64,000 bases of DNA from a virus, in the IMG/VR virus record IMGVR_UViG_3300025536_000011. One strand, 5' to 3'. Shown here one piece after another: positions 14,230 through 30,467 of this stretch. The position numbers were made by a program, and so were the translations under genes. Under the pieces are notes generated by a model, which saw nothing but the letters and a program-made list of their open reading frames with translations, did no database searches and was not told the DNA's origin. How positions within the stretch are numbered: position 1 is the stretch's first letter; each line of letters opens with the position of its first letter.

Positions 14230-14547
14230 TTACTTCGAAAGAGCGAACGTCGAATCGCATTCGTCGCACGAATCGCTGTCGTCGTCGGGCATCGTCGCCC
14301 CGCACGCATGGCACACAGTCTCGTTACTCTCAAGGGCCATTTCCGCCTCGACTAGTGAAGAGTAGGGGCCGTTCCATTCGGAACAATCGAGGTATCCATC
14401 GGCCGACAGTCGATAGAACGTGCCCGTAGCGTAGCCCGAGACGCCGTCACAGTCTCGGACATCACACGGGAACATGTAGACGCTGCCCTCGGGAGTCTCG
14501 ACTACAGCCATGCGGCCCGTGTAGTATTTCGGCGTCATGAATGTCAT
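14230..14547 (-). CDS. small protein with C-terminal zinc ribbon
   Basis: CHACG..CDEC; GGAGCGA upstream. Confidence 0.65.
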   Translation of the reverse strand: MTFMTPKYYTGRMAVVETPEGSVYMFPCDVRDCDGVSGYATGTFYRLSADGYLDCSEWNGPYSSLVEAEMALESNETVCHACGATMPDDDSDSCDECDSTFALSK

Positions 14548-14605
14548 TTCTCGCTCCGTTCGATTCGGGCCGGATCATTCCGGCCGTGCTATCTACTTCG
14601 GAATA

Positions 14606-14634
14606 ATGATATCACGGGCTTGAACGGGCGTCCA
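14606..14634 (-). promoter_or_regulatory. promoter of the repeated family (degenerate -35)
   Basis: TGGACG-17-TATCAT with TG extension. Confidence 0.55.
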
Positions 14635-14663
14635 CTAGGACGCCCGTTCTTCTCATTTTGAGA

Positions 14664-14861
14664 CTAGATGAGCCCGAGAATCAGAATCCACGAATCCCGG
14701 CCGTGAGTACAACGGCCGTCCGGTTCGACGGTACAGCCACAGGGCGTTTTCGCCTTGCCAGTGGACATCCAACGTTCCATCGTGGCGACGGAAGGGGCTT
14801 TCGTGGCCCGCTTGACGGGCCGTTTCGGAGTAGCGTCATTCCACGAATTCCAGTCGCTCAT
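14664..14861 (-). CDS. hypothetical protein
   Basis: ATG 14861, GGAGCGA upstream; CGCTVEPDGRCTHG. Confidence 0.7.
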   Translation of the reverse strand: MSDWNSWNDATPKRPVKRATKAPSVATMERWMSTGKAKTPCGCTVEPDGRCTHGRDSWILILGLI

Positions 14862-14933
14862 GATTTTCGCTCCGTTGCGGGCCGCACTATTGCGGCCCGA
14901 CAAAGAGTATATCGGCACGTTTCCCGAAAAGCT

Positions 14934-15200
14934 TTACTCCGTTTCCCAGAAAATCTCAATGTTTTGCTTATCGCATACCCAGTCAGGAATTACGTCGATA
15001 TCAGCATATTCCCATTCGGCCCTATCGGGCCGAATGATTAGGTGGGCTCTGCCCTGCCCAATGTCCCGATAGTGCGGGCTTGTGCTAGGCTCATGATCCC
15101 GGACCGGATTGATATAGATATGCGGCCCGTGCGGAATATCGCCGATACAGTCGGCGATATAGTAGGTAGCAATTGCCCGGCCGAAGTAGTGTCGCGTCAT
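14934..15200 (-). CDS. hypothetical protein
   Basis: ATG 15200 just after upstream stop. Confidence 0.5.
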   Translation of the reverse strand: MTRHYFGRAIATYYIADCIGDIPHGPHIYINPVRDHEPSTSPHYRDIGQGRAHLIIRPDRAEWEYADIDVIPDWVCDKQNIEIFWETE

Positions 15201-15201
15201 G

Positions 15202-15318
15202 TTATTGTCCGATTTTCTGGCAAGCCTCAAGCGTAGCATAGGCAGCTGCCATGATTTTCAGGCCCAGAAAGACAAGCCCGACGCATCCGAGAATCAGGAG
15301 GGCCGCTCGCGTTTTCAT
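15202..15318 (-). CDS. small membrane peptide
   Basis: GGAGCGAAGC upstream; hydrophobic core. Confidence 0.55.
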   Translation of the reverse strand: MKTRAALLILGCVGLVFLGLKIMAAAYATLEACQKIGQ

Positions 15319-15379
15319 CGTTGCTTCGCTCCGTTGCGTCGTCGGACGATTCCGAACGACGCAAAAGAATATCACGTTT

Positions 15380-15595
15380 TCAGGCCCCGTCAAATTTGCC
15401 GAAACGATTTTCGTTAATGGCGAAACTATCAGGGTTTATCGCAGCCCAACAAGCGGCCGCTTCCAATAGGGGCTTCGCCGGATTCGAGCCTAGCATCATC
15501 ATAGCCCGGACGGCCGTTTCGCATGTTACGGCATTGCACGCTACGGTTTGCGGGCCGCATTCTTCCGCTAGGGCAATCCATTCGGCGATTGTCAT
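15380..15595 (-). CDS. hypothetical protein
   Basis: ATGA coupling. Confidence 0.55.
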   Translation of the reverse strand: MTIAEWIALAEECGPQTVACNAVTCETAVRAMMMLGSNPAKPLLEAAACWAAINPDSFAINENRFGKFDGA

Positions 15596-15891
15596 GATGT
15601 CGAATCCTCTTGATCGGTTTTCAGGGAATATCCCTCAAGCCCCTTAACAGCTTGAGCGGCCGGATTAGAACGTAACCAAGTATCGGTGGATTCGCAAAGC
15701 CCGGAAGCGGGGCCATCGTCTCGAATGTCGGCCCGACCATACTGGCCACTGTCGAGATAGTGGCGACGGCCCGTCGGGCCGACTAGCACGACGGTTTCCT
15801 TATCCGGCCGACATTGGACGTATCGGCCGGATTCTAGCGTCCCAATGGGCCGCTCAAGAGCCGTCATGAGGGTAACGTTTCGGTATTCCAT
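15592..15891 (-). CDS. hypothetical protein
   Basis: GGAGCGAAGC upstream. Confidence 0.65.
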   Translation of the reverse strand: MEYRNVTLMTALERPIGTLESGRYVQCRPDKETVVLVGPTGRRHYLDSGQYGRADIRDDGPASGLCESTDTWLRSNPAAQAVKGLEGYSLKTDQEDSTS

Positions 15892-15939
15892 GTTAGCTTC
15901 GCTCCGTTTGCCGTCCCAACGGGAATTAACTTCGGCAAA

Positions 15940-15968
15940 AGAGTATCACGGGCTTTAGCCCGTGTCAA
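15940..15968 (-). promoter_or_regulatory. hairpin-spacer promoter
   Basis: TTGACACGGGCTAAAGCCCGTGATACTCT; stem CACGGGC/GCCCGTG. Confidence 0.8.
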
Positions 15969-15976
15969 ATAATTCT

Positions 15977-16237
15977 TTAAACCGTTTGGTAGCTTAGGAT
16001 TCGGCCCGAATACTTTGCAAATTTCGCCCGAAGCTTTCGGACGAGAATCACGTTTCCGTTTGGCATGAGCCTAACATGGGAACAGATACCATTTCCAAGG
16101 CCCATGAAATAGTCAATCCACGGCTGCCATACGTCGTCAGTAAAATCCCAAATACCGCGATTGCCGTCCGCACGGCACGCGAAAGCAATAGCTTTGTCGT
16201 GGTCGGCAAAACGACGACGATTGCGATTCGTCTTCAT
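15977..16237 (-). CDS. hypothetical protein
   Basis: ATG 16237, GGAG upstream. Confidence 0.6.
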   Translation of the reverse strand: MKTNRNRRRFADHDKAIAFACRADGNRGIWDFTDDVWQPWIDYFMGLGNGICSHVRLMPNGNVILVRKLRAKFAKYSGRILSYQTV

Positions 16238-16266
16238 GTTAGGGGCTCCGTTTACATTGACCGAAA

Positions 16267-16295
16267 AGAGTATCACGGCCCATGCGGGCCGTCAA
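16267..16295 (-). promoter_or_regulatory. hairpin-spacer promoter
   Basis: TTGACGGCCCGCATGGGCCGTGATACTCT; stem ACGGCCC/GGGCCGT. Confidence 0.8.
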
Positions 16296-16296
16296 A

Positions 16297-16527
16297 TCTC
16301 ATTTTGAGAGAAACGAATTCTCATTTTGAACGTGATATGGTTCATTCTGACGCAAATTCCTGAAAATCAATGATTTATAGGCAAATTGAACGTATTTCAG
16401 GAGTTATCGCATCGGCTGAAAGCCGAGCGATTCCGCACGGCAAGAATTGCCGATTGCACCAAAACGTGCATTCTCATTCTGAGAAACGTTACCGTTAGGT
16501 AACACTCAAATTGATTCTCAAAGTGAG
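16297..16527. repeat. cluster of TCTCA-N3-TGAGA palindromes in a non-coding gap
   Basis: perfect copies at about 16297, 16472, 16515, partial copies at about 16320 and 16503. Confidence 0.6.
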
Positions 16528-16578
16528 AGGGGCGGGATTCGGTCGTCCTCGCCCCTTATGTCGATTTTCTGGATACTT

Positions 16579-16746
16579 CTAGCAATTCTGCGAATTGGCA
16601 TAGCTTAAAGCTTGCGTTTTCAATTTCTGGGCTTTAACTCCGTCTAGAAAGCCCTGAATATACGCTTGAGAACCGCTTGCATAAAGCCCCCCATACTGTC
16701 TCAAGCCCGCTTGAAAGCCCCGATTGTATTCCGCTTCGCGTTTCAT
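16579..16746 (-). CDS. 55-aa protein absent from the ORF track (MKREAEYNRGFQAG...), probably leaderless
   Basis: translated by hand; ATG 7 nt after the -10 box. Confidence 0.6.
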   Translation of the reverse strand: MKREAEYNRGFQAGLRQYGGLYASGSQAYIQGFLDGVKAQKLKTQALSYANSQNC

Positions 16747-16752
16747 GCTAGT

Positions 16753-16780
16753 AGAATATCCCGTTTTCAGGCAATGTCAA
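16753..16780 (-). promoter_or_regulatory. sigma70-type promoter
   Basis: TTGACA-16-TATTCT. Confidence 0.65.
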
Positions 16781-16790
16781 GTGGGGAAAT

Positions 16791-17012
16791 TTACCCAATT
16801 CGCTCGAATGCGGCCGATACTGCCCCGCTCCATTCTTGATAGTCAAGCGATTGTTCATTAAAGCTAGCTCGCCTAGCCCCAGCTTGCCAAGCTTTGTCAA
16901 ATCGCATATTAGGGTTTTCCCTAAGCGTTTGGGCAGTCTCGACTACCATATCTGTAAACGTTTCAAAGCCAGTCTTTCGCTCGAATCGGCTAACTTTCTT
17001 AGAATAATCCAT
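16791..17012 (-). CDS. hypothetical protein
   Basis: ORF downstream of promoter and leader hairpin. Confidence 0.6.
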   Translation of the reverse strand: MDYSKKVSRFERKTGFETFTDMVVETAQTLRENPNMRFDKAWQAGARRASFNEQSLDYQEWSGAVSAAFERIG

Positions 17013-17066
17013 ATTCGCTAGCTCACTTAAAGGGCCGCACTATTGCGGGCCGCTTGAGACACTAGA

Positions 17067-17094
17067 ATAGTATCACGGCCGAGTCGGGAGTCAA
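17067..17094 (-). promoter_or_regulatory. promoter of the repeated family
   Basis: TTGACT-16-TACTAT; -35 contains the stop codon of 17091-17384. Confidence 0.7.
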
Positions 17095-17384
17095 GTGCGG
17101 GAAATATTATCGAACGGACTCGAATTCACTAGGGCCGTGCCGATATACTTTTCGACGAATTCCTTACTTTCCTTGAGCCCAAGCCCGGACACGGCCCGAA
17201 AAGCCTTAATCGCTCCGATAACGTTTCCGCCATTATTAACCTTGGGAATAAGAGGCAAAACTTCCATGAAACAAATTCGGACAATCTCAAGTCGCTTGCC
17301 TTCCTCATTCCCAATAACGTCAAGCAAAATCTTATTCTTATCACAATCGGACATATTATTGATAATCTGATTAAGATAGCTCAT
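17091..17384 (-). CDS. ribosomal protein L7/L12 C-terminal domain-like protein
   Basis: IGAIKAFRAVSGLGLKESKEFVE. Confidence 0.75.
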   Translation of the reverse strand: MSYLNQIINNMSDCDKNKILLDVIGNEEGKRLEIVRICFMEVLPLIPKVNNGGNVIGAIKAFRAVSGLGLKESKEFVEKYIGTALVNSSPFDNISRT

Positions 17385-17430
17385 TATTCGCTTCGCTCAT
17401 TTTAAGGGCCGCACTATCGCGGACACCTAG

Positions 17431-17458
17431 AGAGTATCACGGTTCAACGGGAAGTCAA
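17431..17458 (-). promoter_or_regulatory. promoter of the repeated family
   Basis: TTGACT-16-TACTCT. Confidence 0.7.
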
Positions 17459-17743
17459 GCTTACAGCATCGGAAAGTGACATAGAAGCATAGCGATACCC
17501 GCTAGTGCCGTCCCAAAGCCATATAATGCCAGTATGGGGCGGATTAGCCTCAAGCTTTTCCCATGCTTCGCTTGCCGCATTAGAGCCTGCCCGTATTCCC
17601 TGAAAATAAGCTTTAGAGCCTGTAGGGGCATTCGGGCCGCTTGACATATACCATTCCAGGGAATAGAGCGTAAAGCCCCTAAGAAAGCCCCTATCATAAT
17701 GGGTTAAGCCACGATATCGGCCACGTTTGGATTTATCAGGCAT
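17444..17743 (-). CDS. hypothetical protein (YxRGF..G / AYxQG motif)
   Basis: ORF coupled to upstream gene. Confidence 0.55.
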   Translation of the reverse strand: MPDKSKRGRYRGLTHYDRGFLRGFTLYSLEWYMSSGPNAPTGSKAYFQGIRAGSNAASEAWEKLEANPPHTGIIWLWDGTSGYRYASMSLSDAVSLTSR

Positions 17744-17952
17744 TACTTAGGCTCCTCAATAGCGGCAATCCGCCAAGTCTCGAATGGGGCGGTGGGCTTT
17801 CCCTGCCGGTCGATCCAAGCTTGACATTCTCCGACATTGGCGAACGGGCCAACAAGCTTTTGAAGCCCGTCCGGCGAGTCTAGGACCGCGACGATATTTC
17901 CAGGGAACATGAGGAAATCTCCCATAGAAGAGAATGAGCGGCCCATACCCAA
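17743..17952 (-). CDS. hypothetical protein
   Basis: VGPFA...CQAW motif; start uncertain. Confidence 0.5.
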   Translation of the reverse strand: MGMGRSFSSMGDFLMFPGNIVAVLDSPDGLQKLVGPFANVGECQAWIDRQGKPTAPFETWRIAAIEEPK

Positions 17953-18015
17953 CCGGAACCCGTGTCGGGCATAGCTGGCAGACTATTCTTAAGTGCCGCT
18001 CAATTGGACGCTAGA

Positions 18016-18044
18016 AAGGTATCACGGCAGGACGGGAAAGGCAA
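18016..18044 (-). promoter_or_regulatory. promoter of the repeated family (degenerate -35)
   Basis: TTGCCT-17-TACCTT with GCCGTGA. Confidence 0.55.
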
Positions 18045-18154
18045 GTTTCAAGGTGATAATTTGTCGCTTGAGCGACATTGTGTATTATAAACCCTTATTT
18101 GCCTTAAAGTTATCAAAGTGATATCATTTCGATATCGTTATGATATTAAAAGAG

Positions 18155-18370
18155 TTATACAAAGCGAGACCAACAGCCAGAATCATCATCGGAAGAAATA
18201 TGCCAACCCAAAGCCTCAAGCCTAGCGATATCCGACTTACTTATCGGTTTATCAGGCACAATCCCATAAAGTATATCATGATCCGCTCCGCCTAAACTTT
18301 CTTCTAAACCCTTATTACAATAGGAACTTAGAATAGAAAGCCCGGCAATAATCTGTTGAATTGATGCCAT
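18155..18370 (-). CDS. hypothetical protein
   Basis: ORF; GADHDILY..LEALGW pattern. Confidence 0.65.
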   Translation of the reverse strand: MASIQQIIAGLSILSSYCNKGLEESLGGADHDILYGIVPDKPISKSDIARLEALGWHISSDDDSGCWSRFV

Positions 18371-18391
18371 AACTTCAATTCCTTGAAATAG

Positions 18392-18589
18392 TTAAAAGTC
18401 ATACTCCTTAACGTCAATGCCCTTTGCGTTTAGGTCCAACATCTCACACTTAAACGGTTTACGGATTGATGCCTTTAAAATTTGAGGCGACCTAACATAT
18501 TGCCAGAAATGCTCTCTAATATGTTGCTCGAAAGGCACTTGCTCGAAACTATCAGGCACAATAAATTCCATTACTAGGATTTTCGCCAT
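18392..18589 (-). CDS. hypothetical protein
   Basis: ORF in run. Confidence 0.55.
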   Translation of the reverse strand: MAKILVMEFIVPDSFEQVPFEQHIREHFWQYVRSPQILKASIRKPFKCEMLDLNAKGIDVKEYDF

Positions 18590-18593
18590 AACT

Positions 18594-18884
18594 CTATTCC
18601 TCGGAAATACTTATCCTCCGCCACCCCGGAAATTGTATTTTAAGTTTTCCCATAGCACGTTGACTAGAACGAGCATAAATTGTGCCAACGTGGCTTTTCT
18701 CTTCTATCGTTACAGAATATCGAAAACTCTCCGCCGTGCAAGGAATAAGCGATAAGTTATTGCGGGCAAAATACTTAGCATGAAAATTGCAAATATATTC
18801 ACCCTGATAAAATCCGCCCTTAAATTGATAATTCGCCGGATATCGGCAGAGTCTATTCCTAGACGTTCGGCATTGGCATTGCAT
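18594..18884 (-). CDS. Cys-rich hypothetical protein
   Basis: ATG 18884 directly after a GGA-triloop RBS hairpin. Confidence 0.6.
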   Translation of the reverse strand: MQCQCRTSRNRLCRYPANYQFKGGFYQGEYICNFHAKYFARNNLSLIPCTAESFRYSVTIEEKSHVGTIYARSSQRAMGKLKIQFPGWRRISISEE

Positions 18885-18901
18885 TTGCTTCTCCGAAGCA
18901 A

Positions 18902-19117
18902 TCAATCAAGCTTTATATAACCCTTAGCCGTTCCGCCCGTTCTAGTGATAGGGATATTCATTTTACTAACTTGGATATCCCAATTAGCCCCAGCCCTTTG
19001 AATCAATAGATCGTCGGCATAAATCAATGCAGCGTCTATATTTACAAAGGGACCGAAATACGTTTTCTCGCCCGAAGCCAGAAAACCGTCCCGATATGTT
19101 TTAATAACTAGGAACAT
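18902..19117 (-). CDS. hypothetical protein
   Basis: GGAGCGA upstream. Confidence 0.6.
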   Translation of the reverse strand: MFLVIKTYRDGFLASGEKTYFGPFVNIDAALIYADDLLIQRAGANWDIQVSKMNIPITRTGGTAKGYIKLD

Positions 19118-19146
19118 TTTATTTCGCTCCGCTCAATTACGCTAAC

Positions 19147-19175
19147 AGTGTATCACGGCCCTTGTGCCGTGTCAA
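19147..19175 (-). promoter_or_regulatory. hairpin-spacer promoter
   Basis: TTGACACGGCACAAGGGCCGTGATACACT; stem CACGGC/GCCGTG. Confidence 0.8.
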
Positions 19176-19330
19176 GTGCCGGAAAAGATTTCCACTTCGA
19201 TTCTATGCCATAATGGCAGTCGCCGCTTGAGTTTAAATAAAGCCCATTTAATGCTACGGGCTTGCATAAATCCCGTTTTAACTTGTCCGGTTTCTAATTC
19301 CACCCAAAAAGTGTAAATTTTACTTACCAT
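19172..19330 (-). CDS. hypothetical protein
   Basis: ATG 19330; stop lies within the next -35. Confidence 0.5.
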   Translation of the reverse strand: MVSKIYTFWVELETGQVKTGFMQARSIKWALFKLKRRLPLWHRIEVEIFSGT

Positions 19331-19631
19331 CGCGGCTCCAATATTTTTCAGCGTTACGCATAGCGAAACGAATATTCTCTGCTCCAACCGGATTAGCCGA
19401 ATGGATTGCCCAAGCAAGCTTAGGCAACGTGCCGAAGTATGCCATAAGACTAATAGATTGAGCTACAGTGTAGCCGGTTTCCTCTTTAGGCGAGCTATCG
19501 CCTAAGTCGTGGTCGAAACTAATAAAGCTTACTTGGCCAGTCGCAAGAGCCGCCCTAGCCTCTTCCGCAGTTCGGCAGTGCCGGTCAAAATCCTCGGGCA
19601 TCGGCCGAACGTCGTCAAGCCAAAGTCTCAT
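19320..19631 (-). CDS. cyclic-phosphate processing receiver-domain-like protein
   Basis: MRLWLDDVRPMP..ISFDHDLG..HSANPVG. Confidence 0.75.
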   Translation of the reverse strand: MRLWLDDVRPMPEDFDRHCRTAEEARAALATGQVSFISFDHDLGDSSPKEETGYTVAQSISLMAYFGTLPKLAWAIHSANPVGAENIRFAMRNAEKYWSRDGK

Positions 19632-19663
19632 ATTTCGCTCCGCTTAATTTTAACTCCACTAAG

Positions 19664-19691
19664 AATATATCACTTCCTAGCAGATTGTCAA
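19664..19691 (-). promoter_or_regulatory. promoter of the repeated family
   Basis: TTGACA-16-TATATT. Confidence 0.65.
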
Positions 19692-19895
19692 GTTAATAAA
19701 ATAATCGGCCCGGATTGCTCCGGGCCGATGCCTTGTCCTAGCACGCTTTAGGCTATGCCAATATTTACTTTGCACTAAATACCGTCTAGGTCGATACTTA
19801 GCAGGGATTCATTCGCTCTTTACATATTTATATACATTGCCGGGAGAATCCTCATTTTAAGCTTCCGCTAAGCGGCTTATCCCTAAGACACTAAA

Positions 19896-19923
19896 AGCCT
19901 ATCACGCGGGCTTAGCTTGTCAA
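19896..19923 (-). promoter_or_regulatory. promoter whose -35 lies within an 11-bp hairpin
   Basis: CACGCGGGCTT-gacaagct-AAGCCCGCGTG-ATA on the minus strand. Confidence 0.65.
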
Positions 19924-20607
19924 GCCCGCGTGAACAAATCCCGTATTATCTTTCTTAGCACGGGCTTTCGGAGAAAGCCCGACGATACAAGGGCTTAAGT
20001 CCAAAAATCTTAGATCGTGGATATCGCCGTCTATAACGGCATAGCCGTTAAACCATTTAGGAATATCGTCTCGAAAGACGATAGCAACGTTAAACCCACG
20101 CTCAAGAGCCGCTTTGCATTCCAGCCAATTATTTTCGCTTGCCGAAAACGTCAAGTGATAATTAGTGGGCAAAGTATAGCCCGACTTGAGCCTATGCGAA
20201 AGCTTTGTATAGTCGTAGAATTGCAGTGTCGGGAATTCGGCAAAAATTTCCGGCATACGCTTTTCCCATACGATATCAGAAGTGCCGTTTAGCCTGATAG
20301 CGGGAATTAAACCTTGCCGCTTAGCGGCCCGCACAAGAGCCGCTAAATCGTTTCTAAGCAACGTTCGGAATTCTTCCGGCTTCTGGTACAAAAGCCGGGT
20401 TTTCCTCACGCGGGCCGCTTGCACGGGCCGATATTTCCCATATCCCGAGGTATTCAGGCAAGCGGCCCGACATCCGGCCGACGATTTTGGGCAGACGTTT
20501 CGCCCGCTCAAGCTTGCCGGTGCTAAGTGTAGGATAGCATTTAAATAGCCGAATGCCTTAGCCTTTTCTATCTTATGATTATCCAAAGTGATAAGGGCAA
20601 AGCCCAT
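19912..20607 (-). CDS. GP88-like phage protein (Cys-cluster, radical-SAM-like)
   Basis: VCPKSSAGCRAACLN..RLNGTSDI..FYDYTK..DGDIHDLRFLD. Confidence 0.7.
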   Translation of the reverse strand: MGFALITLDNHKIEKAKAFGYLNAILHLAPASLSGRNVCPKSSAGCRAACLNTSGYGKYRPVQAARVRKTRLLYQKPEEFRTLLRNDLAALVRAAKRQGLIPAIRLNGTSDIVWEKRMPEIFAEFPTLQFYDYTKLSHRLKSGYTLPTNYHLTFSASENNWLECKAALERGFNVAIVFRDDIPKWFNGYAVIDGDIHDLRFLDLSPCIVGLSPKARAKKDNTGFVHAGLTS

Positions 20608-20609
20608 AT

Positions 20610-20792
20610 TTATTCGCCCCCTTTGAATAACTTGATATAGAGCCCGACAATGCTAATAAGAATAACCCATAGCAGAGTCTCCCATATAACCCTAATGGGA
20701 TTTTCCAGCCCGTCCGAATCAAGCCCGGCCGCTTCATCGCGGCCGGGCTTAGTTCTACTCACGGAACGGGCGAACGCTCTGCCCCCGATCAC
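20610..20792 (-). CDS. small membrane protein
   Basis: C-terminal hydrophobic helix; ATGA overlap. Confidence 0.4.
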   Translation of the reverse strand: MIGGRAFARSVSRTKPGRDEAAGLDSDGLENPIRVIWETLLWVILISIVGLYIKLFKGGE

Positions 20793-21189: not shown

Positions 21190-21217
21190 AGGTTATCACG
21201 TTCTAGCCTACTGTCAA
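21190..21217 (-). promoter_or_regulatory. promoter of the repeated family fused to the arm of a 14-bp hairpin
   Basis: TTGACA-16-TAACCT; hairpin about 21215-21246. Confidence 0.65.
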
Positions 21218-21260
21218 GCCCGGCCGCACGATTGCGGCCGGGCTTGCGAGACTCCAAAGC

Positions 21261-22317: not shown

Positions 22318-22346
22318 ATCTTATCACGGCCCTTGCGGGCCGTCAA
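22318..22346 (-). promoter_or_regulatory. hairpin-spacer promoter
   Basis: TTGACGGCCCGCAAGGGCCGTGATAAGAT. Confidence 0.8.
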
Positions 22347-22348
22347 GT

Positions 22349-22555
22349 TTAATCGAGCGGAATCGCGTCGGGCAAATTATTGCCGGAAAGATTTTCCGGC
22401 CGATACCGAATAACATAACTGCCGTCGTTGCAGACATCATAACCCGAACACCGCTCGAAAATAACTCCGTTCCACGAAATACGCTTAGGATAAGCTTTAT
22501 CGACAATGTTTCGCGTCTCGAATCGCAATGCTCCAATAAAGGCGGCGGGCTTCAT
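22349..22555 (-). CDS. hypothetical protein
   Basis: ATG 22555, GGAGCTAAG upstream. Confidence 0.55.
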   Translation of the reverse strand: MKPAAFIGALRFETRNIVDKAYPKRISWNGVIFERCSGYDVCNDGSYVIRYRPENLSGNNLPDAIPLD

Positions 22556-22590
22556 ATTCTTAGCTCCGGCCGGATTATTCCGGCACCGAC

Positions 22591-22619
22591 AATCTATCAC
22601 TGCCCGACAGGGCAGTCAA
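22591..22619 (-). promoter_or_regulatory. hairpin-spacer promoter with covarying stem
   Basis: TTGACTGCCCTGTCGGGCAGTGATAGATT; stem ACTGCCC/GGGCAGT. Confidence 0.8.
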
Positions 22620-22855: not shown

Positions 22856-22884
22856 AAGATATCACGGCCCGCAAGAGCCGTCAA
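22856..22884 (-). promoter_or_regulatory. hairpin-spacer promoter
   Basis: TTGACGGCTCTTGCGGGCCGTGATATCTT. Confidence 0.8.
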
Positions 22885-22938: not shown

Positions 22939-22966
22939 TTGACGGCATGAAATACCGTGATACTCT
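22939..22966 (+). promoter_or_regulatory. promoter of the repeated family
   Basis: TTGACG-16-TACTCT. Confidence 0.65.
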
Positions 22967-23029
22967 GCTAGTGTCAATCGGGCACCTTGACCAATCGGCC
23001 AATGGCTCGAAATGTCGCGTGCGGCTCGA

Positions 23030-23058
23030 TTGACGCGGCCCGGTTCGCCTGATACCGG
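23030..23058 (+). promoter_or_regulatory. possible degenerate promoter of the family
   Basis: TTGACG-17-TACCGG (weak -10). Confidence 0.35.
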
Positions 23059-23116
23059 AACGGTGCCGATTATTGGCGTGGCCGGGCGGATTATCAGGAA
23101 TTCGCCCGGATTTTCC

Positions 23117-23145
23117 TTGACGGCCCGCACGGGCCGTGATACTCT
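23117..23145 (+). promoter_or_regulatory. hairpin-spacer promoter
   Basis: TTGACGGCCCGCACGGGCCGTGATACTCT. Confidence 0.8.
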
Positions 23146-23157
23146 TCTCGTGAATTA

Positions 23158-23237
23158 GTCGCCCGCCTAACCTAGTATCGCTCAATTGGTAAAGCCAGCG
23201 AGAAAGGGAAGTCGCCCAGAGCGGCCAGGCGGGCGAC
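23158..23237 (+). ncRNA. candidate 80-nt structured RNA
   Basis: 11-bp closing stem 23158-68/23227-37; internal GCTCAATTGGTAAAGC resembles a tRNA D arm; upstream promoter. Confidence 0.45.
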
Positions 23238-23733: not shown

Positions 23734-23761
23734 AGTATATCACTCCCTAGTCGTGAGTCAA
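23734..23761 (-). promoter_or_regulatory. promoter of the repeated family
   Basis: TTGACT-16-TATACT. Confidence 0.7.
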
Positions 23762-24592: not shown

Positions 24593-24620
24593 GATAGTTT
24601 CCTTTGTCGCTACGCGACAA

Positions 24621-24863
24621 TTACTCTAGTTCAAAGTTAGTACCAATATAATAATAGGCTTCGCCAGTCACTATATTGACAAAGTCAATAAGAATATTGT
24701 GTTGCAAAAAATGTTTTACGAGTTTAGCTTTAAATACCCAAATTGTTTCTACATGGATAGGGTCGCCACAAGCATATCCAGATATGTTTAATGGATGAGC
24801 CTTAAGAGGCTCTTTAATTACAAAAGCATCGCCTACTTCAAGATCGGCAGATGTTCTTTGCAT
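24621..24863 (-). CDS. hypothetical protein
   Basis: ORF in run. Confidence 0.5.
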   Translation of the reverse strand: MQRTSADLEVGDAFVIKEPLKAHPLNISGYACGDPIHVETIWVFKAKLVKHFLQHNILIDFVNIVTGEAYYYIGTNFELE

Positions 24864-24883
24864 AGCAATTATCCCTAACGGGT

Positions 24884-25243
24884 TTACCCGTTAATAAACA
24901 CTCCCTCATTCGTCGAGTAAGAGGTACGCAAGCCAGCCTCCGCCACAGTCTTTGCACAATCTCGGCAAGGCCGCGACATCTTAATTTCTCCTTGCCGGTT
25001 AATACGGCAACAAATAATACGATAACCGGCAAGACTTTGCCGGTTCAGCATGGCACGGGCCTTAGCAATGGCTCGTACTTCGGCATGAGCGGCCGAGAAG
25101 CAGCCGGAGCCTCTAGGATGCGTCTTATGGACAAGGTTACAGGCAGCGGCAATGACTCTTCCGCCCTTCCCTACGATAAGGGCGGAATGACGGAATTGGT
25201 CTCCGTTGCTTTGCAAGGCAGTACGAAGGGCGATCCGCACCAT
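24884..25243 (-). CDS. cytidine/dCMP deaminase-fold protein
   Basis: HAEVRAI and SRPCRDC Zn-binding motifs. Confidence 0.85.
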   Translation of the reverse strand: MVRIALRTALQSNGDQFRHSALIVGKGGRVIAAACNLVHKTHPRGSGCFSAAHAEVRAIAKARAMLNRQSLAGYRIICCRINRQGEIKMSRPCRDCAKTVAEAGLRTSYSTNEGVFING

Positions 25244-25269
25244 TGAGCTACGCTCACTTTCTTAACATA

Positions 25270-25298
25270 AGTGTATCACGGCTCGCAAGAGACGTCAA
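25270..25298 (-). promoter_or_regulatory. hairpin-spacer promoter (one mismatch)
   Basis: TTGACGTCTCTTGCGAGCCGTGATACACT. Confidence 0.75.
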
Positions 25299-25343
25299 GT
25301 ATTTTATAGTCGCCATCCAAAACATTCAATATGATGTTTTAAA

Positions 25344-25419
25344 TGGTGAGCCGCCCCGGCTTTGCTCCGGGCACCTAAAAGTTAAGAGCTTTTTGCTCTA
25401 CTGAATGAGCTAGCGGCCC
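25344..25419 (-). tRNA. tRNA-Lys(CUU) with atypical D and T loops
   Basis: GGGCCGC/GCGGCTC acceptor; AAAAG-CTCTTAA-CTTTT; T loop AGCAAAG; encoded CCA. Confidence 0.85.
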
Positions 25420-25439
25420 ACGCTTATGTTACAAGTTGC

Positions 25440-25883
25440 TTAGGACGGAAGAACGTCCTTTTCGACCCGCATAAGGCGAAGCCTCAAATATTCGAATACA
25501 TTAGGCTTCGGGTCGCCAAGGTGGTGAGTAAAGGTGTATGTTACTAGAGTAATAAAATTGCTTCTAGTGCCTAGAAGCTGCTCATCCACAATGTTATTAA
25601 GTAGGTCGCGTAGCTCCCTAGCGAATTGAAGAAACTGAAAATCGTCAGTTGTAGGAGCTAGAAATACAGTCTCGCCAGTAATTTGACCACGACGGAATGC
25701 TTTGGCTAGTCGGCCAAGCGAAACGTCTCTACCAATTCGGCGATTAAAGCCATCTCGCGGAAAATCCCGCGACACAAAATTCTTTGCGAATGCAAAAGAA
25801 ATACCAATCGCGTTAATTGGCTCGATATAACCAAGACACACCGTTGCACCGGCACGGGGCAAGTGAATAAATTCGGTTCGCAT
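25440..25883 (-). CDS. hypothetical protein, paralog of 61327-61686
   Basis: shared EFIHL.R.G.T..L..GISF/VS..F.R.IGR....GR. Confidence 0.65.
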   Translation of the reverse strand: MRTEFIHLPRAGATVCLGYIEPINAIGISFAFAKNFVSRDFPRDGFNRRIGRDVSLGRLAKAFRRGQITGETVFLAPTTDDFQFLQFARELRDLLNNIVDEQLLGTRSNFITLVTYTFTHHLGDPKPNVFEYLRLRLMRVEKDVLPS

Positions 25884-25936
25884 TACATGCTCACTTTCTT
25901 TTGCCGTCTCTCGGCAAATTTGAGGCTTAAGCCTCG

Positions 25937-26158
25937 TTATTGTTCGTACTGAAAATCTCCAAAATTCTGAAGAGCCTGAATTGCTTGCTGGATAATTGGA
26001 CTAGTGTAAGAGAACGCAAAAGCACAAGCCGCCGCTTGAAAAACAAGGATATGGTTGCTATTAAAATTAGCCATCATATACTCTACGGTTAATCCAACGT
26101 TATCTACCAGGATACGTCGGCACTCCTCGCGTAATGACTTCTTCGTGTAGGTAATCAT
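25937..26158 (-). CDS. hypothetical protein, probably leaderless
   Basis: ATG 7 nt after -10. Confidence 0.6.
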   Translation of the reverse strand: MITYTKKSLREECRRILVDNVGLTVEYMMANFNSNHILVFQAAACAFAFSYTSPIIQQAIQALQNFGDFQYEQ

Positions 26159-26164
26159 GCTAGT

Positions 26165-26193
26165 AGCTTATCACGGCTGCAAGCAGCCGTCAA
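26165..26193 (-). promoter_or_regulatory. hairpin-spacer promoter
   Basis: TTGACGGCTGCTTGCAGCCGTGATAAGCT; stem ACGGCTG/CAGCCGT. Confidence 0.8.
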
Positions 26194-26649
26194 GTGATAA
26201 TTTCGATCTCATGCTCAATATTCGCTACAATATATTTTGATAATGAATTTTCGCGTTGAATAGTAATTGAATCTTTTCCCTTAAATACTACTTCAAATGT
26301 CTCAATTTTATGTGATTGTTGATAACTGCCAATAATAACACATAACATGTTAGTAGGATGACAAAACCTAAATTTTATTTCATAATTTAACGTGTCAAGT
26401 TTTCTTTTAACGGAGCATGTACTAATTTTAATGTCCGCGTTGCCAATGCCTAGAACGTAAGAATGTTTAGTATCGCAATGCGAAAAGAATACTAAATTGT
26501 CGCTACAGGCTGTGAGACTAAATTTGGCTCCAATAATCGGGCGTCCTACTCCCCGTCTTTACAATCATATATTTGACAGGTATCATCTCTAAAGTGAAAA
26601 ATAGTGCCCGGCTTTATATTCTGAAAAGGGTTCATATCGCTATGCTCCA

Positions 26650-27048
26650 TTACTTACAAGAGTCAGGGATTGGCCAGGTAATTTCAGGCTCGATCCAATG
26701 GGATTCTTGGCCATCAAAATATACGCGAACAACGTCGCAACCCTCATATGCTAATTCAATCCAGCTACCCTTTTCTACAAATGGTGCAATCTCTTCAAAC
26801 ATTGTTTCTTCATCATAGGAAGAATATTCAGTATTTAGCTCCAACGTAAACGTTGGCCCAAGTTTAGGGTTAGCTAGGTAATCATCAATATCAATGTCTG
26901 ACGACAGGCACCAATCAGGATTTTCTACTTCTTCTGGCTTGCAACGAAACGATCTAGCCGAGTATTCAAGGAATATATTATTGATTTTAGCAACATTTTC
27001 AGGCTTTACGCTGAATTCTGCTTCTCGCAGACAAATAGAAACGCTCAT
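26650..27048 (-). CDS. hypothetical protein, related to 33532-33825
   Basis: FEEIAPFVEKGSWIEL..YFDG. Confidence 0.65.
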   Translation of the reverse strand: MSVSICLREAEFSVKPENVAKINNIFLEYSARSFRCKPEEVENPDWCLSSDIDIDDYLANPKLGPTFTLELNTEYSSYDEETMFEEIAPFVEKGSWIELAYEGCDVVRVYFDGQESHWIEPEITWPIPDSCK

Positions 27049-27057
27049 GAGCGTAGC

Positions 27058-27276
27058 TCAACCTTTCTGCTTTGGCGTAGCCAAAGCAAGCGAATTATAG
27101 CCATTTAAAACATATTCTTCTGTCCATGTTGCTCCGCAACATGTGCAACTACAGTCACGACAAATTACTTCATCGAAAGTTTCTGCTGCATCGGCGTCGA
27201 TGCAGTCTTTCTTTTTACAGGAAGGACAAGTAAAGCCGCGTAAAGCGGCATATTCGCTGTCACTTAAAGGACGCAT
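27058..27276 (-). CDS. zinc-ribbon protein
   Basis: CPSC..CSCTCCG.TW.E.Y. Confidence 0.65.
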   Translation of the reverse strand: MRPLSDSEYAALRGFTCPSCKKKDCIDADAAETFDEVICRDCSCTCCGATWTEEYVLNGYNSLALATPKQKG

Positions 27277-27281
27277 TATTT

Positions 27282-27476
27282 TTAATGTCCCTGCTGTTCA
27301 TGATTAAAGTCTGACAGCATACAAATAAAATCTGTCATATCTTTCTCTGGAATAACCATAGCTAGGCTATTTTCATCCTCGTCTAAAATATGGAACTCGC
27401 GTTCATTTTCGTGAAATTCAATGCAGTAAGTACAATCATTACTAAACGTAAATACGACTCTATTTTGGATTTTCAT
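27282..27476 (-). CDS. hypothetical protein
   Basis: GGA-triloop RBS hairpin upstream. Confidence 0.6.
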   Translation of the reverse strand: MKIQNRVVFTFSNDCTYCIEFHENEREFHILDEDENSLAMVIPEKDMTDFICMLSDFNHEQQGH

Positions 27477-27490
27477 GTTGCCTCCGGCAA

Positions 27491-27766
27491 CTAAAATGGC
27501 TCATCATCCCAATCTTCTGGATAATAAGAAGGATCATAAATTAAATCTTCGCTATCAAAATATGGATCTTCATAATCATAATCATCATAATCATCATAGC
27601 TATCTTCATTAGAGATAGCCTCTTCCTCCCACTCACAAATACTGTCCAGAATTTGCGTTAGAGGTAATGACGGGTTTCCGTCAGTATAATCAGCAATCAA
27701 ATATAACATACTGGCATCAGTGATGCCATAGTCAGTTTGGATTTGTCGAATTCTATGAATTAGCAT
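27491..27766 (-). CDS. small protein with highly acidic C-terminal tail
   Basis: D/E/Y-rich tail; N-terminus similar to 27753-27923. Confidence 0.6.
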   Translation of the reverse strand: MLIHRIRQIQTDYGITDASMLYLIADYTDGNPSLPLTQILDSICEWEEEAISNEDSYDDYDDYDYEDPYFDSEDLIYDPSYYPEDWDDEPF

Positions 27767-27923
27767 CTTCGGAATCCTCCTCAGATTTTACAGCAACATC
27801 CAGCACTTGATTAAACTCTTGGACCAATCCCTTGAATTCTAAGAATTCACAGAAAGTAGCAATAATAGTGGCATCGTCAATATCGAAACTCTCTTGAATT
27901 TCACGAATGCGTGCCCAAAGCAT
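27753..27923 (-). CDS. small acidic protein
   Basis: ATG 27923 after GGA-triloop RBS hairpin. Confidence 0.6.
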   Translation of the reverse strand: MLWARIREIQESFDIDDATIIATFCEFLEFKGLVQEFNQVLDVAVKSEEDSEDANS

Positions 27924-28093
27924 TATTTGCCCTCCGGGCAATCCATCCTATCATTATAACCTTGCTGATAAGGGGCTAACATTTTTCGGTCATTATATTC
28001 TTCATACTTAACTCTATCGCCATACTTTTTAATGTATTGCTCAGCGTCACGACGACCGGCCGCATATTGTTCGGCCCATTCTTTGGGTGTCAT
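27923..28093 (-). CDS. hypothetical protein (QYAAG..PYQQGY motif)
   Basis: ATG 28093 after GGA-triloop RBS hairpin. Confidence 0.6.
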   Translation of the reverse strand: MTPKEWAEQYAAGRRDAEQYIKKYGDRVKYEEYNDRKMLAPYQQGYNDRMDCPEGK

Positions 28094-28221
28094 TTGCTTC
28101 TCCGAAGCAATTAATTTTAATGGTCGGGTGACAGGGAATCGGACCCTGATGAATTTCACGGGATTTTATAAGAATCCTGGGCGTCCACCGCCCACTCACC
28201 CGTAGCGATCAAGACACATAT

Positions 28222-28249
28222 AGCTTATCACGGCGTTGCCATGAGTCAA
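28222..28249 (-). promoter_or_regulatory. promoter of the repeated family
   Basis: TTGACT-16-TAAGCT; -35 holds the stop of 28246-28503. Confidence 0.7.
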
Positions 28250-28503
28250 GTAATATTATTTCTAGCCAGCCAGCAATCCAGCATTTGTTCCTCGGCAATT
28301 ATTTCGTTGATAATGTACTGGGAAATAAGAATTTGAATCGCGTGGTCTCGCGGCATATCACAATGGCCACTATCAGACGAATAGCAGAATCGTTCGTTAT
28401 GCCAAAGTTCACACTTTTCAAGATTTGCAAGTTCTTGAATAGAAGTGGCATAGCCAAGACTACGCCCGCCATATTCATTAATGAGACTTAGATGAATTCT
28501 CAT
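28246..28503 (-). CDS. hypothetical protein
   Basis: ORF in run. Confidence 0.55.
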   Translation of the reverse strand: MRIHLSLINEYGGRSLGYATSIQELANLEKCELWHNERFCYSSDSGHCDMPRDHAIQILISQYIINEIIAEEQMLDCWLARNNIT

Positions 28504-28514
28504 TTTATCTAGCT

Positions 28515-28724
28515 CTAGCAGAAAATATCATAATCAATATTCGGCAGCGAATAAAAGTCGCTATTCATTAAATTCTGGATAATGACATAATCTGCACTAG
28601 CACCGATAAGCCGCATACCGTCGCCGGGCTTAATAGTAACCTTTGCTCCCGTTTGGCAGCATAAGCCTTTAACGCGAGCATTAAAATCGAATTCGCAATC
28701 AGGTTCCAGGTCGGAGATTATCAT
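28515..28724 (-). CDS. hypothetical protein
   Basis: ORF in run. Confidence 0.55.
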   Translation of the reverse strand: MIISDLEPDCEFDFNARVKGLCCQTGAKVTIKPGDGMRLIGASADYVIIQNLMNSDFYSLPNIDYDIFC

Positions 28725-28870
28725 ATAATGTTATTCCTAATTTGCTGCTTAAACCGACGACGCAACGCTCTGTTGTGCTTAGCACGATCATATTCAGATT
28801 TACAGCAATTACACTTAATCCCGCCTTTACCGGGGGACCAGTGCGTTTTTTCTTTGCTCATGATGCTTAT

Positions 28871-28899
28871 AACATATCACGGCCTATATGCCGTGTCAA
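28871..28899 (-). promoter_or_regulatory. hairpin-spacer promoter
   Basis: TTGACACGGCATATAGGCCGTGATATGTT. Confidence 0.8.
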
Positions 28900-28962
28900 G
28901 CTAATTAATTGTTCTGCTCCCTTAAACTATCTAATATTGCTCGTCTCTCCTCTTCAACTTTA

Positions 28963-29310
28963 TTATTTGCCCTTCGTATTAAAGTTTACCTTAAATAACA
29001 CGTTTGCTAGTACGCTGATACCAAACATTTGCCAGAAAGTAACCTCGTTGCACCCTACGGCTGGCACTAGGCAAGAATTCCATAGAAAGACTGCTAGAAA
29101 ATTAAACAAGAAGAAGAATAATACAAAAAGCCCCATCCCGACAATAAAAAGAATAAACTTATCCATTTCGCTTTTTAGCCTTTCGTTTAACTGGCGTATG
29201 TGTCGTTTCTTCCGTCCAATTCCACATTGGATAATTTTGCGAGTGCTTGCACTCGTAATAATAGTTTTTAGTAATTGGCGGGCTATTTCGCCGAGTATAA
29301 AAATATTCAT
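28963..29310 (-). CDS. membrane protein (true start probably later)
   Basis: two hydrophobic segments; EVTFWQMFGI. Confidence 0.5.
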   Translation of the reverse strand: MNIFILGEIARQLLKTIITSASTRKIIQCGIGRKKRHIRQLNERLKSEMDKFILFIVGMGLFVLFFFLFNFLAVFLWNSCLVPAVGCNEVTFWQMFGISVLANVLFKVNFNTKGK

Positions 29311-29383
29311 CTATAATATGATAGCCGAAGAAACCAATTGCTACTATAATGACTGTTAAACAATACCACGCATTATCACTCAT
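29159..29383 (-). CDS. small membrane-anchored protein
   Basis: N-terminal hydrophobic helix; ATGA coupling. Confidence 0.45.
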   Translation of the reverse strand: MSDNAWYCLTVIIVAIGFFGYHIIDEYFYTRRNSPPITKNYYYECKHSQNYPMWNWTEETTHTPVKRKAKKRNG

Positions 29384-29586
29384 ACAATCTTATCTCCTAG
29401 CCATAAATGACTGCTGCCACACTTAGTATATGTGAGTTTAACAATATCGCCAACTTTTGCACCGCGAACGCGGTCGAGCCCTGAACAAAGATGGACAATT
29501 TCGCCAGTGCTAGTAACAACGATTTTTTGGTTATTCCACTTATCAATGGCTTCTACGCGACCATATTTAGTATGAGCCTTGCTCAT
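29380..29586 (-). CDS. hypothetical protein
   Basis: coupled ORF. Confidence 0.55.
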   Translation of the reverse strand: MSKAHTKYGRVEAIDKWNNQKIVVTSTGEIVHLCSGLDRVRGAKVGDIVKLTYTKCGSSHLWLGDKIV

Positions 29587-30206
29587 TAGTATGCCTCTCC
29601 ATAAATATACATGTCGCTAAAATCACCTTCGGAAGTCCAATCGACACGGCGATTCCCACATTCGCAGCGACGACTTAACCCGTCCCATCCTTTACAGGGA
29701 CCATCACAATTTTGACCATTAAAACTATGCCACTTTTCATCTTTAGTGGCTGCTGCTTTTAATTCTTCAAATTTGACTTCGCGGGCATCATAGAAGGCTG
29801 ACTCGCTAGTAAAATCTTGTCCAAATTTCTTACCGCGTTCCAGTAGGAACGCGATAGCCTCGTCACGCACTTTAATAGCCGCACTATTAGCATTCTTTGT
29901 TTGTTCTGCGAGTAAGACCTTTTTACGAGCATCTTCAATTCGCCTAGTAAGTTCTTCAAATTCGATACGGTATGGACACCACGGAGCCCCGGCCTTACTT
30001 AAATATCTATATTCTTTGGAAGTATTGCCCCAAATTTCGTTGGCCAGCAATACTAGGCTCTTATACTTGTTCGCCAATTCGTGGCGAACTTGCTTATTAT
30101 GGGCGTTTACGCTCTCGTAAAGCGTCTTTAGATCATTTAATTGCTCAGGAGTGATTTTAAGCAATTCTCCGTCAGAAATATATGGGACACCTTTGTAATT
30201 ACTCAT
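29586..30206 (-). CDS. hypothetical protein with C-terminal Cys cluster
   Basis: CDGPCKGWDGLSRRCECGNRRV; ATG 30206 in a GGA-triloop hairpin. Confidence 0.7.
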   Translation of the reverse strand: MSNYKGVPYISDGELLKITPEQLNDLKTLYESVNAHNKQVRHELANKYKSLVLLANEIWGNTSKEYRYLSKAGAPWCPYRIEFEELTRRIEDARKKVLLAEQTKNANSAAIKVRDEAIAFLLERGKKFGQDFTSESAFYDAREVKFEELKAAATKDEKWHSFNGQNCDGPCKGWDGLSRRCECGNRRVDWTSEGDFSDMYIYGEAY

Positions 30207-30207
30207 T

Positions 30208-30432
30208 TTACTCCGTAAAATTAAAACATCCGTCCACTTCAAGGTCAATTAATGCCTGACGCAGCATATCAGAATCCAAATTCTGTACAAAAGCAACAGA
30301 CGCAGCGATTTGACATGCTTTAGGCAGATGAATTTGATTGCCAATAATTCCAGTGGCTAATTCTAGACCAGGAGCTATTCGCTTAATTTCAGCAAGTAAG
30401 TTTTCACGGGAGTAACGATATTTTTCGCTCAT
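30208..30432 (-). CDS. hypothetical protein, probably leaderless
   Basis: ATG 7 nt after -10. Confidence 0.6.
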   Translation of the reverse strand: MSEKYRYSRENLLAEIKRIAPGLELATGIIGNQIHLPKACQIAASVAFVQNLDSDMLRQALIDLEVDGCFNFTE

Positions 30433-30438
30433 GACCTA

Positions 30439-30467
30439 ACTATATCACGGCGGCGAGCCGCCGTCAA
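30439..30467 (-). promoter_or_regulatory. hairpin-spacer promoter (left member of a divergent pair)
   Basis: TTGACGGCGGCTCGCCGCCGTGATATAGT; stem ACGGCGG/CCGCCGT. Confidence 0.8.

Follow-up and report, generated by a model that had tools for sequence, protein, structure and literature searches.

In a 64,000-nucleotide stretch of the virus record IMGVR_UViG_3300025536_000011 (hereafter the window; the reverse complement of bases 127–64126 in the 177,274-base IMG/VR record), positions 14230–30467 are occupied by an array of ~46 small genes, mostly ORFans, which all lie on the minus strand (leftward) and form ~22 units, with 1 to 8 small genes behind each copy of a repeated promoter. This array is probably the hyperplastic early-gene region of a long-tailed, uncultured phage of ~177 kb from a subsurface metagenome, and in function and evolution it would belong to the promoter-early stem-loop (PeSL) type of cassette system and not to the integrons. 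PeSL cassettes, the closest system known, have been described from the T4-type phages RB49/phi1, T4/PST and KVP40/nt-1 (Arbiol et al., 2010, PMC2839356; Comeau et al., 2014, PMC4122927). They combine a sigma70 promoter, a stem-loop and a Shine-Dalgarno sequence in hyperplastic regions, and recombination between the elements gives rise to ORFan insertions and deletions (indels) and to mini-circles (PMC2839356; PMC4122927). The type of system is thus known; new in comparison with PeSL are the location of a covarying hairpin within the promoter spacer and a class of leaderless cassettes.

The repeat that heads the units has the form TTGAC-N13-15-TGATA, that is, a −35 box TTGACn, a spacer of 16–17 bp and an extended −10 (TGn) with the hexamer TAyxxT. 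The window contains 29 exact copies versus 0.47 ± 0.67 in shuffled sequences; all 29 are found within window positions 6–56 kb and none in the other 113 kb of the 177-kb genome, the structural and replication part being without the array promoter. On the minus strand of the array there are 18 exact copies, between 15393 and 30467, and four near-copies (16780, 18044, 14634 and ~14925; promoters are designated here by the first base of the −35 box). The repeated sigma70-like promoter between small non-essential genes that characterizes PeSL regions is therefore present in 22 copies. These promoters would be active early in infection and would be read by the host sigma70-type RNA polymerase. The array begins with promoter 30467 (30439–30467), and a perfect promoter facing the other way (TTGACA-16-TATAAT, 12/12 consensus matches; 30555–30582, plus strand) marks 30467–30555 as a divergent control region. 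Both divergent promoters carry a spacer hairpin (ACGGCGGC/GCCGCCGT and ACGCGG/CCGCGT, respectively). Promoter 30467 drives the leaderless gene 30432–30208, and promoter 30555 drives the plus-strand gene 30700–31050, whose TGA is that of the −35 box of promoter 31047.

Relatives were sought in several collections. The array had no Megablast match among 50,697 phage records (INPHARED). In IMG/VR the best hit of the GP88 protein was 50%, without common neighbours, the flanking AAA-BCS1 gene found no relative, and the HNH-phosphatase gene gave matches in the HNH domain only. A 15-mer from the leader hairpin had 117 single hits, which is chance level, the JGI metagenomes scanned with the AAA protein and a DUF932 alignment yielded no relatives, and look-ups of exact proteins and of clusters led to nothing but re-assemblies of this genome. 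Two relatives were found with the DUF932 protein, only in assemblies of the Sequence Read Archive (SRA): R1, a 181,102-base contig of which 37.5 kb were rebuilt from the loci L403, L399 and L401, and L400, a contig of 3.7 kb. The loci L402 and L404 are identical to R1 and add no further relatives, and the GP88 protein of L400 was found on no other contig. All comparisons are with these two, rather distant, relatives. The repeated promoter, its spacer hairpins and the GCAATAGTGCGG leader recur in both relatives.

Outside the array the gene order of R1 is strictly that of the window, at 50–85% amino acid identity; one exception is the AAA-BCS1 gene 11958–13178, which R1 lacks. Inside the array only 29 of the 46 genes correspond to orthologs in R1, which has 52 genes there, and insertions, replacements and displacements are seen; conserved gene order, which would have spoken against the cassette shuffling proposed in an earlier, sequence-only reading, is not what the two genomes have in common. 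Since the content of the array differs while its flanks are collinear, the region is hyperplastic, and its gene content turns over quickly. Several units have been displaced between the genomes as promoter plus gene, namely promoter 26193 with gene 26158–25937, promoter 23761 with gene 23727–23410, and promoter 25298 with gene 25243–24884, and between the conserved promoters 16780 and 16295 the content is replaced in R1. The GC content of the single genes ranges from 0.28 to 0.60 and their GC3 from 0.19 to 0.71, the latter span indicating a mosaic composition. Paralogous cassettes were looked for within the array and none were found.

For one indel both ends could be placed to the nucleotide. 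L400 is without gene 22556–22349, which is present here and in R1 (alignment A4). It aligns with promoter 22619 and the preceding gene up to ...GGGCAGTG, and from ATAAGATTC... onward with the leader of promoter 22346 and the DUF932 gene. The missing 273 nt (22322–22594) extend from the −10 of one promoter to the equivalent point of the next and constitute a single-gene cassette composed of the discriminator and leader of promoter 22619, gene 22556–22349, and the −35 and spacer of promoter 22346. The crossover is located within the GTGATA core (between GTG and ATA), with an ambiguity of ~6 nt, in a tract of ~16 nt that is 88% identical. The upstream partner (22591–22619) has a compensated hairpin, ACTGCCC/GGGCAGT, and its TTGAC contains the TGA stop of gene 22849–22616, an overlap kept in R1 and L400; the downstream partner (22318–22346), with a GCAATAGTGCGG leader hairpin and a ribosome-binding site (RBS), drives the DUF932 gene 22262–21261. 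The junction in L400 is predicted to be a functional hybrid promoter. Misassembly is unlikely because, in the window, the sequence common to both promoters is much shorter than a 31-mer.

A second junction comes from the source run (~1,150–1,450x), in which one contig joins the sequence downstream of the right-arm promoter 40573 (40573–40598, plus strand) to promoter 19175 (19147–19175, minus strand; its TTGAC contains the stop of gene 19330–19172) at 19151, inside the shared stretch GGCCGTGATA. These two promoters are inverted relative to each other and 82% alike over 38 nt; the contig represents either a junction of the inversion type or a library chimera that arose at a hairpin. No other loose end of the source run maps to a second place in the genome; those at 30483 and 30519 lead into sequence found nowhere in it. 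The contig concerned has just 37 nt (30483–30519) of the divergent control region in common with this genome, flanked on either side by sequence that the genome does not contain, and may derive from a different phage of the sample whose control region is related. For the assembled contigs of the source run no joints, circles or deletions are listed, and the runs X2–X4 contain only ~3x pieces identical to the window and hence hold no haplotype information.

Exchange between two promoter copies could proceed by short-homology crossover or replication slippage at the GTGATA core; it would remove or add exactly one cassette and leave a working hybrid promoter. This route via promoter copies is seen once; further indels are bounded by start or stop codons and involve no promoter. 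The sequence-only reading had taken the promoter for the shared junction through which cassettes are gained and lost. The L400 crossover, the displaced units and the hybrid contig agree with this, but breaks are not enriched at promoters: relative to R1, adjacency is disrupted at 13 of the 17 junctions with a promoter versus 18 of the 22 without one (Fisher p = 0.71), although at such divergence the test is close to saturated. Likewise, when indel breakpoints are compared with the motif, the L400 pair falls into GTGATA, whereas many other indels end at start or stop codons. Further points weigh in the same direction. Only one breakpoint pair is mapped to the nucleotide, and the hybrid contig is possibly a library chimera at a hairpin. 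Several indels end at a stop or start codon without a promoter, for example 19117–18594, 15200–14562 and the 3′ side of the deaminase gene. The GC jump between neighbours is 0.058 across promoters versus 0.043 elsewhere (p = 0.07). Finally, the longest exact identity between different cassettes is 16–17 nt, which is short for RecA-type recombination. The promoter is therefore one recombination junction among several in this lineage.

These same points can be read as an argument that the promoters are regulatory punctuation only, that turnover occurs by generic illegitimate recombination between open reading frames (ORFs), and that the L400 crossover and the hybrid contig are incidental on a frequent repeat. 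Such an explanation is possible, if rather doubtful. It would account for breaks being equally common at promoterless junctions, for the GC-jump test not being significant, for the promoter copies sharing at most 17 nt, and for the many homology blocks that begin at an ATG or RBS and end at a stop codon. It does less well with the fact that the single resolvable indel has both ends in register inside a motif that makes up ~4% of the array, that the only in-genome loose end of the source run runs from promoter to promoter at the same core, that promoter and gene move together as units, and that there is a precedent in PeSL (PMC2839356).

As to the machinery, neither tyrosine (PF00589) nor serine (PF00239) recombinases were found in the whole 177-kb genome, both searches being run with positive controls. 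The earlier observation that no integrase is visible in the window thus extends to the entire genome, which has no integrase or resolvase. A search of the rest of the genome for a recombinase, which the same reading had proposed, turned up a RecA-family protein but none of the tyrosine or serine type. The RecA is bacterial-type (PF00154, 3e-47) and its gene is clustered with those for DnaB, primase and a PD-(D/E)XK nuclease; HNH and LAGLIDADG endonucleases are also encoded in the genome. The likely machinery would therefore be the phage RecA-family protein together with the PD-(D/E)XK nuclease, or copy-choice at the hairpins, and the limit of 16–17 nt on cassette identity favours microhomology or slippage over efficient RecA-type exchange.

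The array resembles an integron in being a one-directional series of single small genes with hairpin-forming junctions and with gain and loss of single cassettes. It differs in that there is no IntI or any other tyrosine or serine recombinase, in that almost all units bring a promoter of their own, where an integron has one common Pc, and in that the junction is a promoter and not an attC, with many indels bypassing the promoter. For these reasons the term integron-like, used in the sequence-only reading, was given up. A site-specific system in which the hairpin-bearing promoter is an attC-like site cut by a dedicated but unrecognized recombinase is highly improbable, even though the L400 junction is precise and in register and the hairpins covary as attC sites do: the genome without a tyrosine or serine recombinase is suggested to be complete by three assemblies, each cassette has its own promoter, unlike integron cassettes, half of the promoters have no hairpin, and most breakpoints lie elsewhere.

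The hairpins in the promoters are supported by covariation. In eight promoters of one register the GC palindromes in the spacer have 92% of cells paired, versus 28–50% when the partner is slid, and a second register of spacer stems is 90% paired. Compensatory changes are found in four pairs, with C-G, U-A, G-C and U-G at one position, and none of 500 shuffles reaches the covariation score. Spacer stems of at least 6 bp are present in 13 of 34 promoters here and in 14 of 28 in R1, versus 6–8% of shuffled spacers; a hairpin is located inside the spacer at ~40% of the promoters, and in the spacer or over the −35 at roughly half. The folding energies range from −11 to −37 kcal/mol. Other hairpins overlie the −35, as at promoters 21217 and 19923, or precede the promoter as a normal terminator, as at 19691.

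The three hairpins that had been noticed from the sequence were all found again. The 14-bp hairpin at 21215–21246 sends its 3′ arm into the −35 of promoter 21217 (−36.9 kcal/mol, z = −4.4; feature 21190–21250), and R1 retains it without promoter and leader. That at 19903–19932 is built around promoter 19923 (GCGGGCTT/AAGCCCGC, 19896–19932; −21.9 kcal/mol, z = −3.8), the TAA stop of the GP88 gene being in the spacer. The third, at ~14196–14219, is a CAAGCCCG hairpin plus terminator; the terminal hairpins and the T run (14165–14219) close the array. The classical PeSL order with the stem-loop just upstream of the promoter is found only at 19664–19729, where an intrinsic-terminator-like hairpin (19729–19704) with a T run is followed by promoter 19691 and the cREC_REC gene 19631–19320; the others are mostly in the spacer or over the −35.

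The likeliest function of the spacer hairpin would be attenuation, insulation or 3′-end protection of the upstream transcript. The stems are stable, a T-rich stretch begins 5–8 nt past them, and only some pass a loose scan for the terminator consensus. This displaced U tract, together with the hairpins at both divergent first promoters, makes an operator or DNA-structure role also possible; indeed, at these two promoters there is no upstream same-strand gene to terminate, which counts against a role in termination. In this alternative the palindrome would be bound by a dimeric phage regulator for shut-off or would extrude as a supercoiling-dependent cruciform, and no RNA hairpin of the upstream transcript would be involved. 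Besides the palindromes at 30467 and 30555, it can call upon the conservation of the outer stem bases CACGG/CCGTG and upon a phage sigma factor (Sigma70_r2, PF04542, 1e-9; 3892–4518, minus strand; 69% identical to its R1 counterpart), which implies a temporal switch. We nevertheless consider it unlikely because the changes in the inner stem are compensatory and one position has three types of pair, because some hairpins are upstream of or over the −35 and not in the spacer, and because the stem occurs in at least three registers, which fits pairing better than a fixed protein site. The sigma factor itself probably directs middle or late transcription and fits a switch later in infection away from the host-type promoters. 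Hairpin promoters for a virion RNA polymerase as in phage N4 were rejected as a further candidate, since both promoter boxes (−35 and −10) are canonical and, of the large proteins, that of 1724 aa is a tape measure protein and that of 2772 aa has no match.

A more far-reaching proposal is that the promoter is a self-healing recombination joint: the covarying spacer hairpin would stall or expose the DNA next to the invariant GTGATA core, copy-choice or exchange by short homology between any two copies, whether direct or inverted, would excise, insert or invert whole cassettes, both products would always keep a working −35 and −10, and the built-in TGA codons would always close the upstream ORF. 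At present we regard this as speculative and quite improbable.

With respect to the stop codons, it had been noted from the sequence that six genes end in the TGA of the next TTGAC. This is the case at 17091, 19172, 22616 and 28246 (minus strand) and at 31048 and 50943 (plus strand), and a seventh such stop was found at 26190. Other genes had been seen to end in the spacer or −10: the stops at 17444 and 19912 are indeed in the spacer, that at 35160 is the TGA of the −10 TGATA, and the stop at 15380 is also in a promoter spacer. All junctions were inspected in the sequence itself. Among 19 array junctions with an upstream ORF and a promoter, the stop is in the −35 at five, in the spacer at three, and at most 16 nt upstream at six. 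In R1, where such stops are kept or have formed anew, at least seven fall into the −35 TGA and two into the −10 TGA, and at one orthologous junction the stop of R1 uses a different TGA of the motif than that of this phage. The motif has two TGA (T-TGA-C and G-TGA-TA), which are 19 nt apart and in different frames, so that two of the three frames are closed by the consensus and any ORF entering the promoter is safely closed. Junctions without a promoter are also overlapped (ATGA, GTGA and TAAATG), which indicates that packing is extreme everywhere; stops are found inside promoters because the genome is packed to the limit. The caveat of the sequence-only reading that tight packing could explain part of the overlap thus holds, and packing together with the built-in stops of the motif explains most of it. 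We read the overlap of stop and −35 as compaction made safe by built-in stops, without a signal in its own right.

The proposed layout of promoter, leader hairpin, RBS and ORF applies to about half of the cassettes, but six are leaderless. In the leader class a 5′ hairpin, in several cases of the form ..CCGCAATAGTGCGG.., is followed by the RBS ACGGAGCGAA, and leadered cassettes carry the GGAGCGAA ribosome site. GGAGCGAR occurs 12 times versus 3.3 expected, and eight of the 12 are just 5′ of array start codons. In the leaderless class the ATG is 6–9 nt past the −10 (promoters 16780, 22884, 23761, 26193, 28899 and 30467). A given gene can belong to both classes: the cREC and deaminase genes are leadered here and leaderless in R1.

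The likeness to PeSL therefore comprises a near-consensus sigma70 promoter, a stem-loop and a ribosome site repeated between small ORFan genes in a hyperplastic region, relatives among which genes have been inserted, deleted, replaced or displaced, a crossover inside two neighbouring elements for at least one single-gene indel, and the lack of a dedicated recombinase, phage general recombination being implicated. There are also differences. Here the stem-loop occupies the spacer or overlies the −35, whereas PeSL cassettes have it ahead of the promoter. The promoter has an extended −10 (TGATAy) and takes up stop codons in its −35, spacer or −10, one cassette in three is leaderless, and copies share only ~10–17 nt of identity. 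Moreover, this phage has a 1724-aa tape measure protein, a bacterial-type RecA and a DnaB-type helicase. A search for the T4 Gp23 capsid family gave no match, but the control of this search also matched nowhere; terminase and portal match only distantly.

The remaining units, in the direction of transcription, are as follows (all on the minus strand). Promoter 28899 (28871–28899), with a spacer hairpin, drives the leaderless gene 28861–28721. Promoter 28249 (28222–28249), whose TTGAC contains the TGA stop of gene 28503–28246, is followed by tRNA-Ile, then a UUCG hairpin, then an ATG. Promoter 26193 (26165–26193; spacer hairpin ACGGCTGC/GCAGCCGT) drives the leaderless gene 26158–25937 and forms with it the first array cassette of R1. 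The dCMP-deaminase-like gene 25243–24884 is behind promoter 25298 (25270–25298) and a leader, its ortholog in R1 (82% amino acid identity) being leaderless and in another position. Promoters 23761 (23734–23761; unit displaced relative to R1) and 22884 (22856–22884; spacer hairpin) both drive leaderless genes, 23727–23410 and 22849–22616. Farther downstream there is a conserved non-coding island of 138 nt (18015–18152) that includes promoter 18044 and is 78% identical to R1, although it is flanked by different genes in the two genomes. Promoter 17458 (17431–17458) has a GCGATAGTGCGG leader hairpin and the TGA stop of gene 17743–17444 in its spacer; promoter 17094 (17067–17094) has a GCAATAGTGCGG leader hairpin, and its TTGAC contains the stop of gene 17384–17091. 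The near-consensus promoter 16780 (16753–16780) drives the leaderless gene 16746–16579. Spacer hairpins are present in promoters 16295 (16267–16295; ACGGCCC/GGGCCGT) and 15968 (15940–15968; CACGGGCT/AGCCCGTG), the latter with a leader hairpin and the RBS ACGGAGCGAA. In promoter 15393 (15366–15393) the TGA stop of gene 15595–15380 is in the spacer, an arrangement also found in R1. The last two promoters, ~14925 and 14634 (14606–14925), both have a degenerate −35, leader hairpins and GGAGCGA RBSs; segment 14562–15200 is absent from R1.

Among the array products only DUF932, GP88, cREC_REC, the dCMP-deaminase-like protein and a weak L7/L12-like C-terminal match were recognized, nearly all others being ORFans. 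The weak match is a 97-aa cassette protein (17094–17384, minus strand) with a borderline hit to PF00542 (ribosomal protein L7/L12 C-terminal domain; 26.4 bits versus a cut-off of 25.9), which could be a translation-factor mimic. Two tRNA genes, tRNA-Ile(TAT) and tRNA-Lys(CTT), are embedded as cassettes, and a search of Rfam gave tRNAs only. A UUCG-loop hairpin TTGCTTCGGAGAAGCAA from a 25-nt repeat (96% identical) is located directly 5′ of the ATG in two cassettes (18885–18906 and 28094–28115, minus strand) and may be an element of translation control or processing.

Inside the array there are also three promoter copies on the plus strand (22939, 23030 and 23117; 22939–23143) with no ORF behind them and with counterparts in R1 and L400. 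The group (22939–23160) lies inside the doubtful ORF 23407–22898. Antisense promoters with a similar downstream ...GTGAATTAG... stretch are present at the matching place in R1 (L399 9204 and 9376, minus) and L400 (740, minus), and no tandem duplication of the three promoters was found. The group looks like a conserved antisense or small RNA unit. The non-coding region 16252–16542, upstream of promoter 16295, holds four to five copies of TCAnAATGAGAA, with a further copy at 14650–14665 ahead of promoter 14634. In a Logan contig of the source run over this region the word depth is 2754 versus 1444 in its neighbours (~1.9x) at an ordinary GC content (0.44), contig depth being a weak measure; the region could be an origin, an operator array, or sequence common to another entity.

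Adjoining the array, the BCS1-like AAA ATPase gene 11958–13178 (plus strand) is missing in R1, where the genes on either side are otherwise collinear. Among 5.8 billion proteins its product finds homologs of at most 38%, the best of them bacterial (Deinococcus, Planctomycetota), and the gene is a flank-side indel of apparently cellular origin. The remaining 113 kb of the genome contain the genes for terminase, portal, tape measure (1724 aa), replication and nucleotide metabolism; no match was found for the 2772-aa protein. Three assemblies of the genome (177,274, 177,389 and 177,403 bases) differ in where they end, and the genome is therefore probably complete and circularly permuted; the completeness estimated by CheckV is 75%, and the end of the ENA contig falls at window position 8277.

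Families of TTGAC-N15-TGATA are not confined to this lineage. A pattern scan found other phages (G001–G004) with families of their own; they were ruled out as relatives, the terminase being without a match. Their spacers are conserved and none reads as a palindrome by eye, stems not having been computed there. The uncultured, unrelated phages L322/L373 (IMG/VR 3300021958_000089), L368 and L303 have dense families of their own with lineage-specific conserved spacers, and in one of them an 84-nt cassette is repeated at 93% identity. These families in unrelated phages are parallel promoter-cassette systems.

The array extends the PeSL idea, according to which regulatory repeats double as linkers for gene shuffling, beyond the T4-type coliphages to a long-tailed subsurface phage that is not placed in the T4-type by the tests made here, and it adds to this idea one breakpoint resolved to the nucleotide. 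At the same time the idea is tempered, as the promoter is not the sole recombination junction in the lineage. The superposition of stop codon, hairpin and promoter is an unusually compact design that can be tested as a bifunctional terminator/promoter part. Should the promoter in fact be a self-healing joint, then the design with the hairpin in the spacer would have been selected for evolvability as well as for expression.

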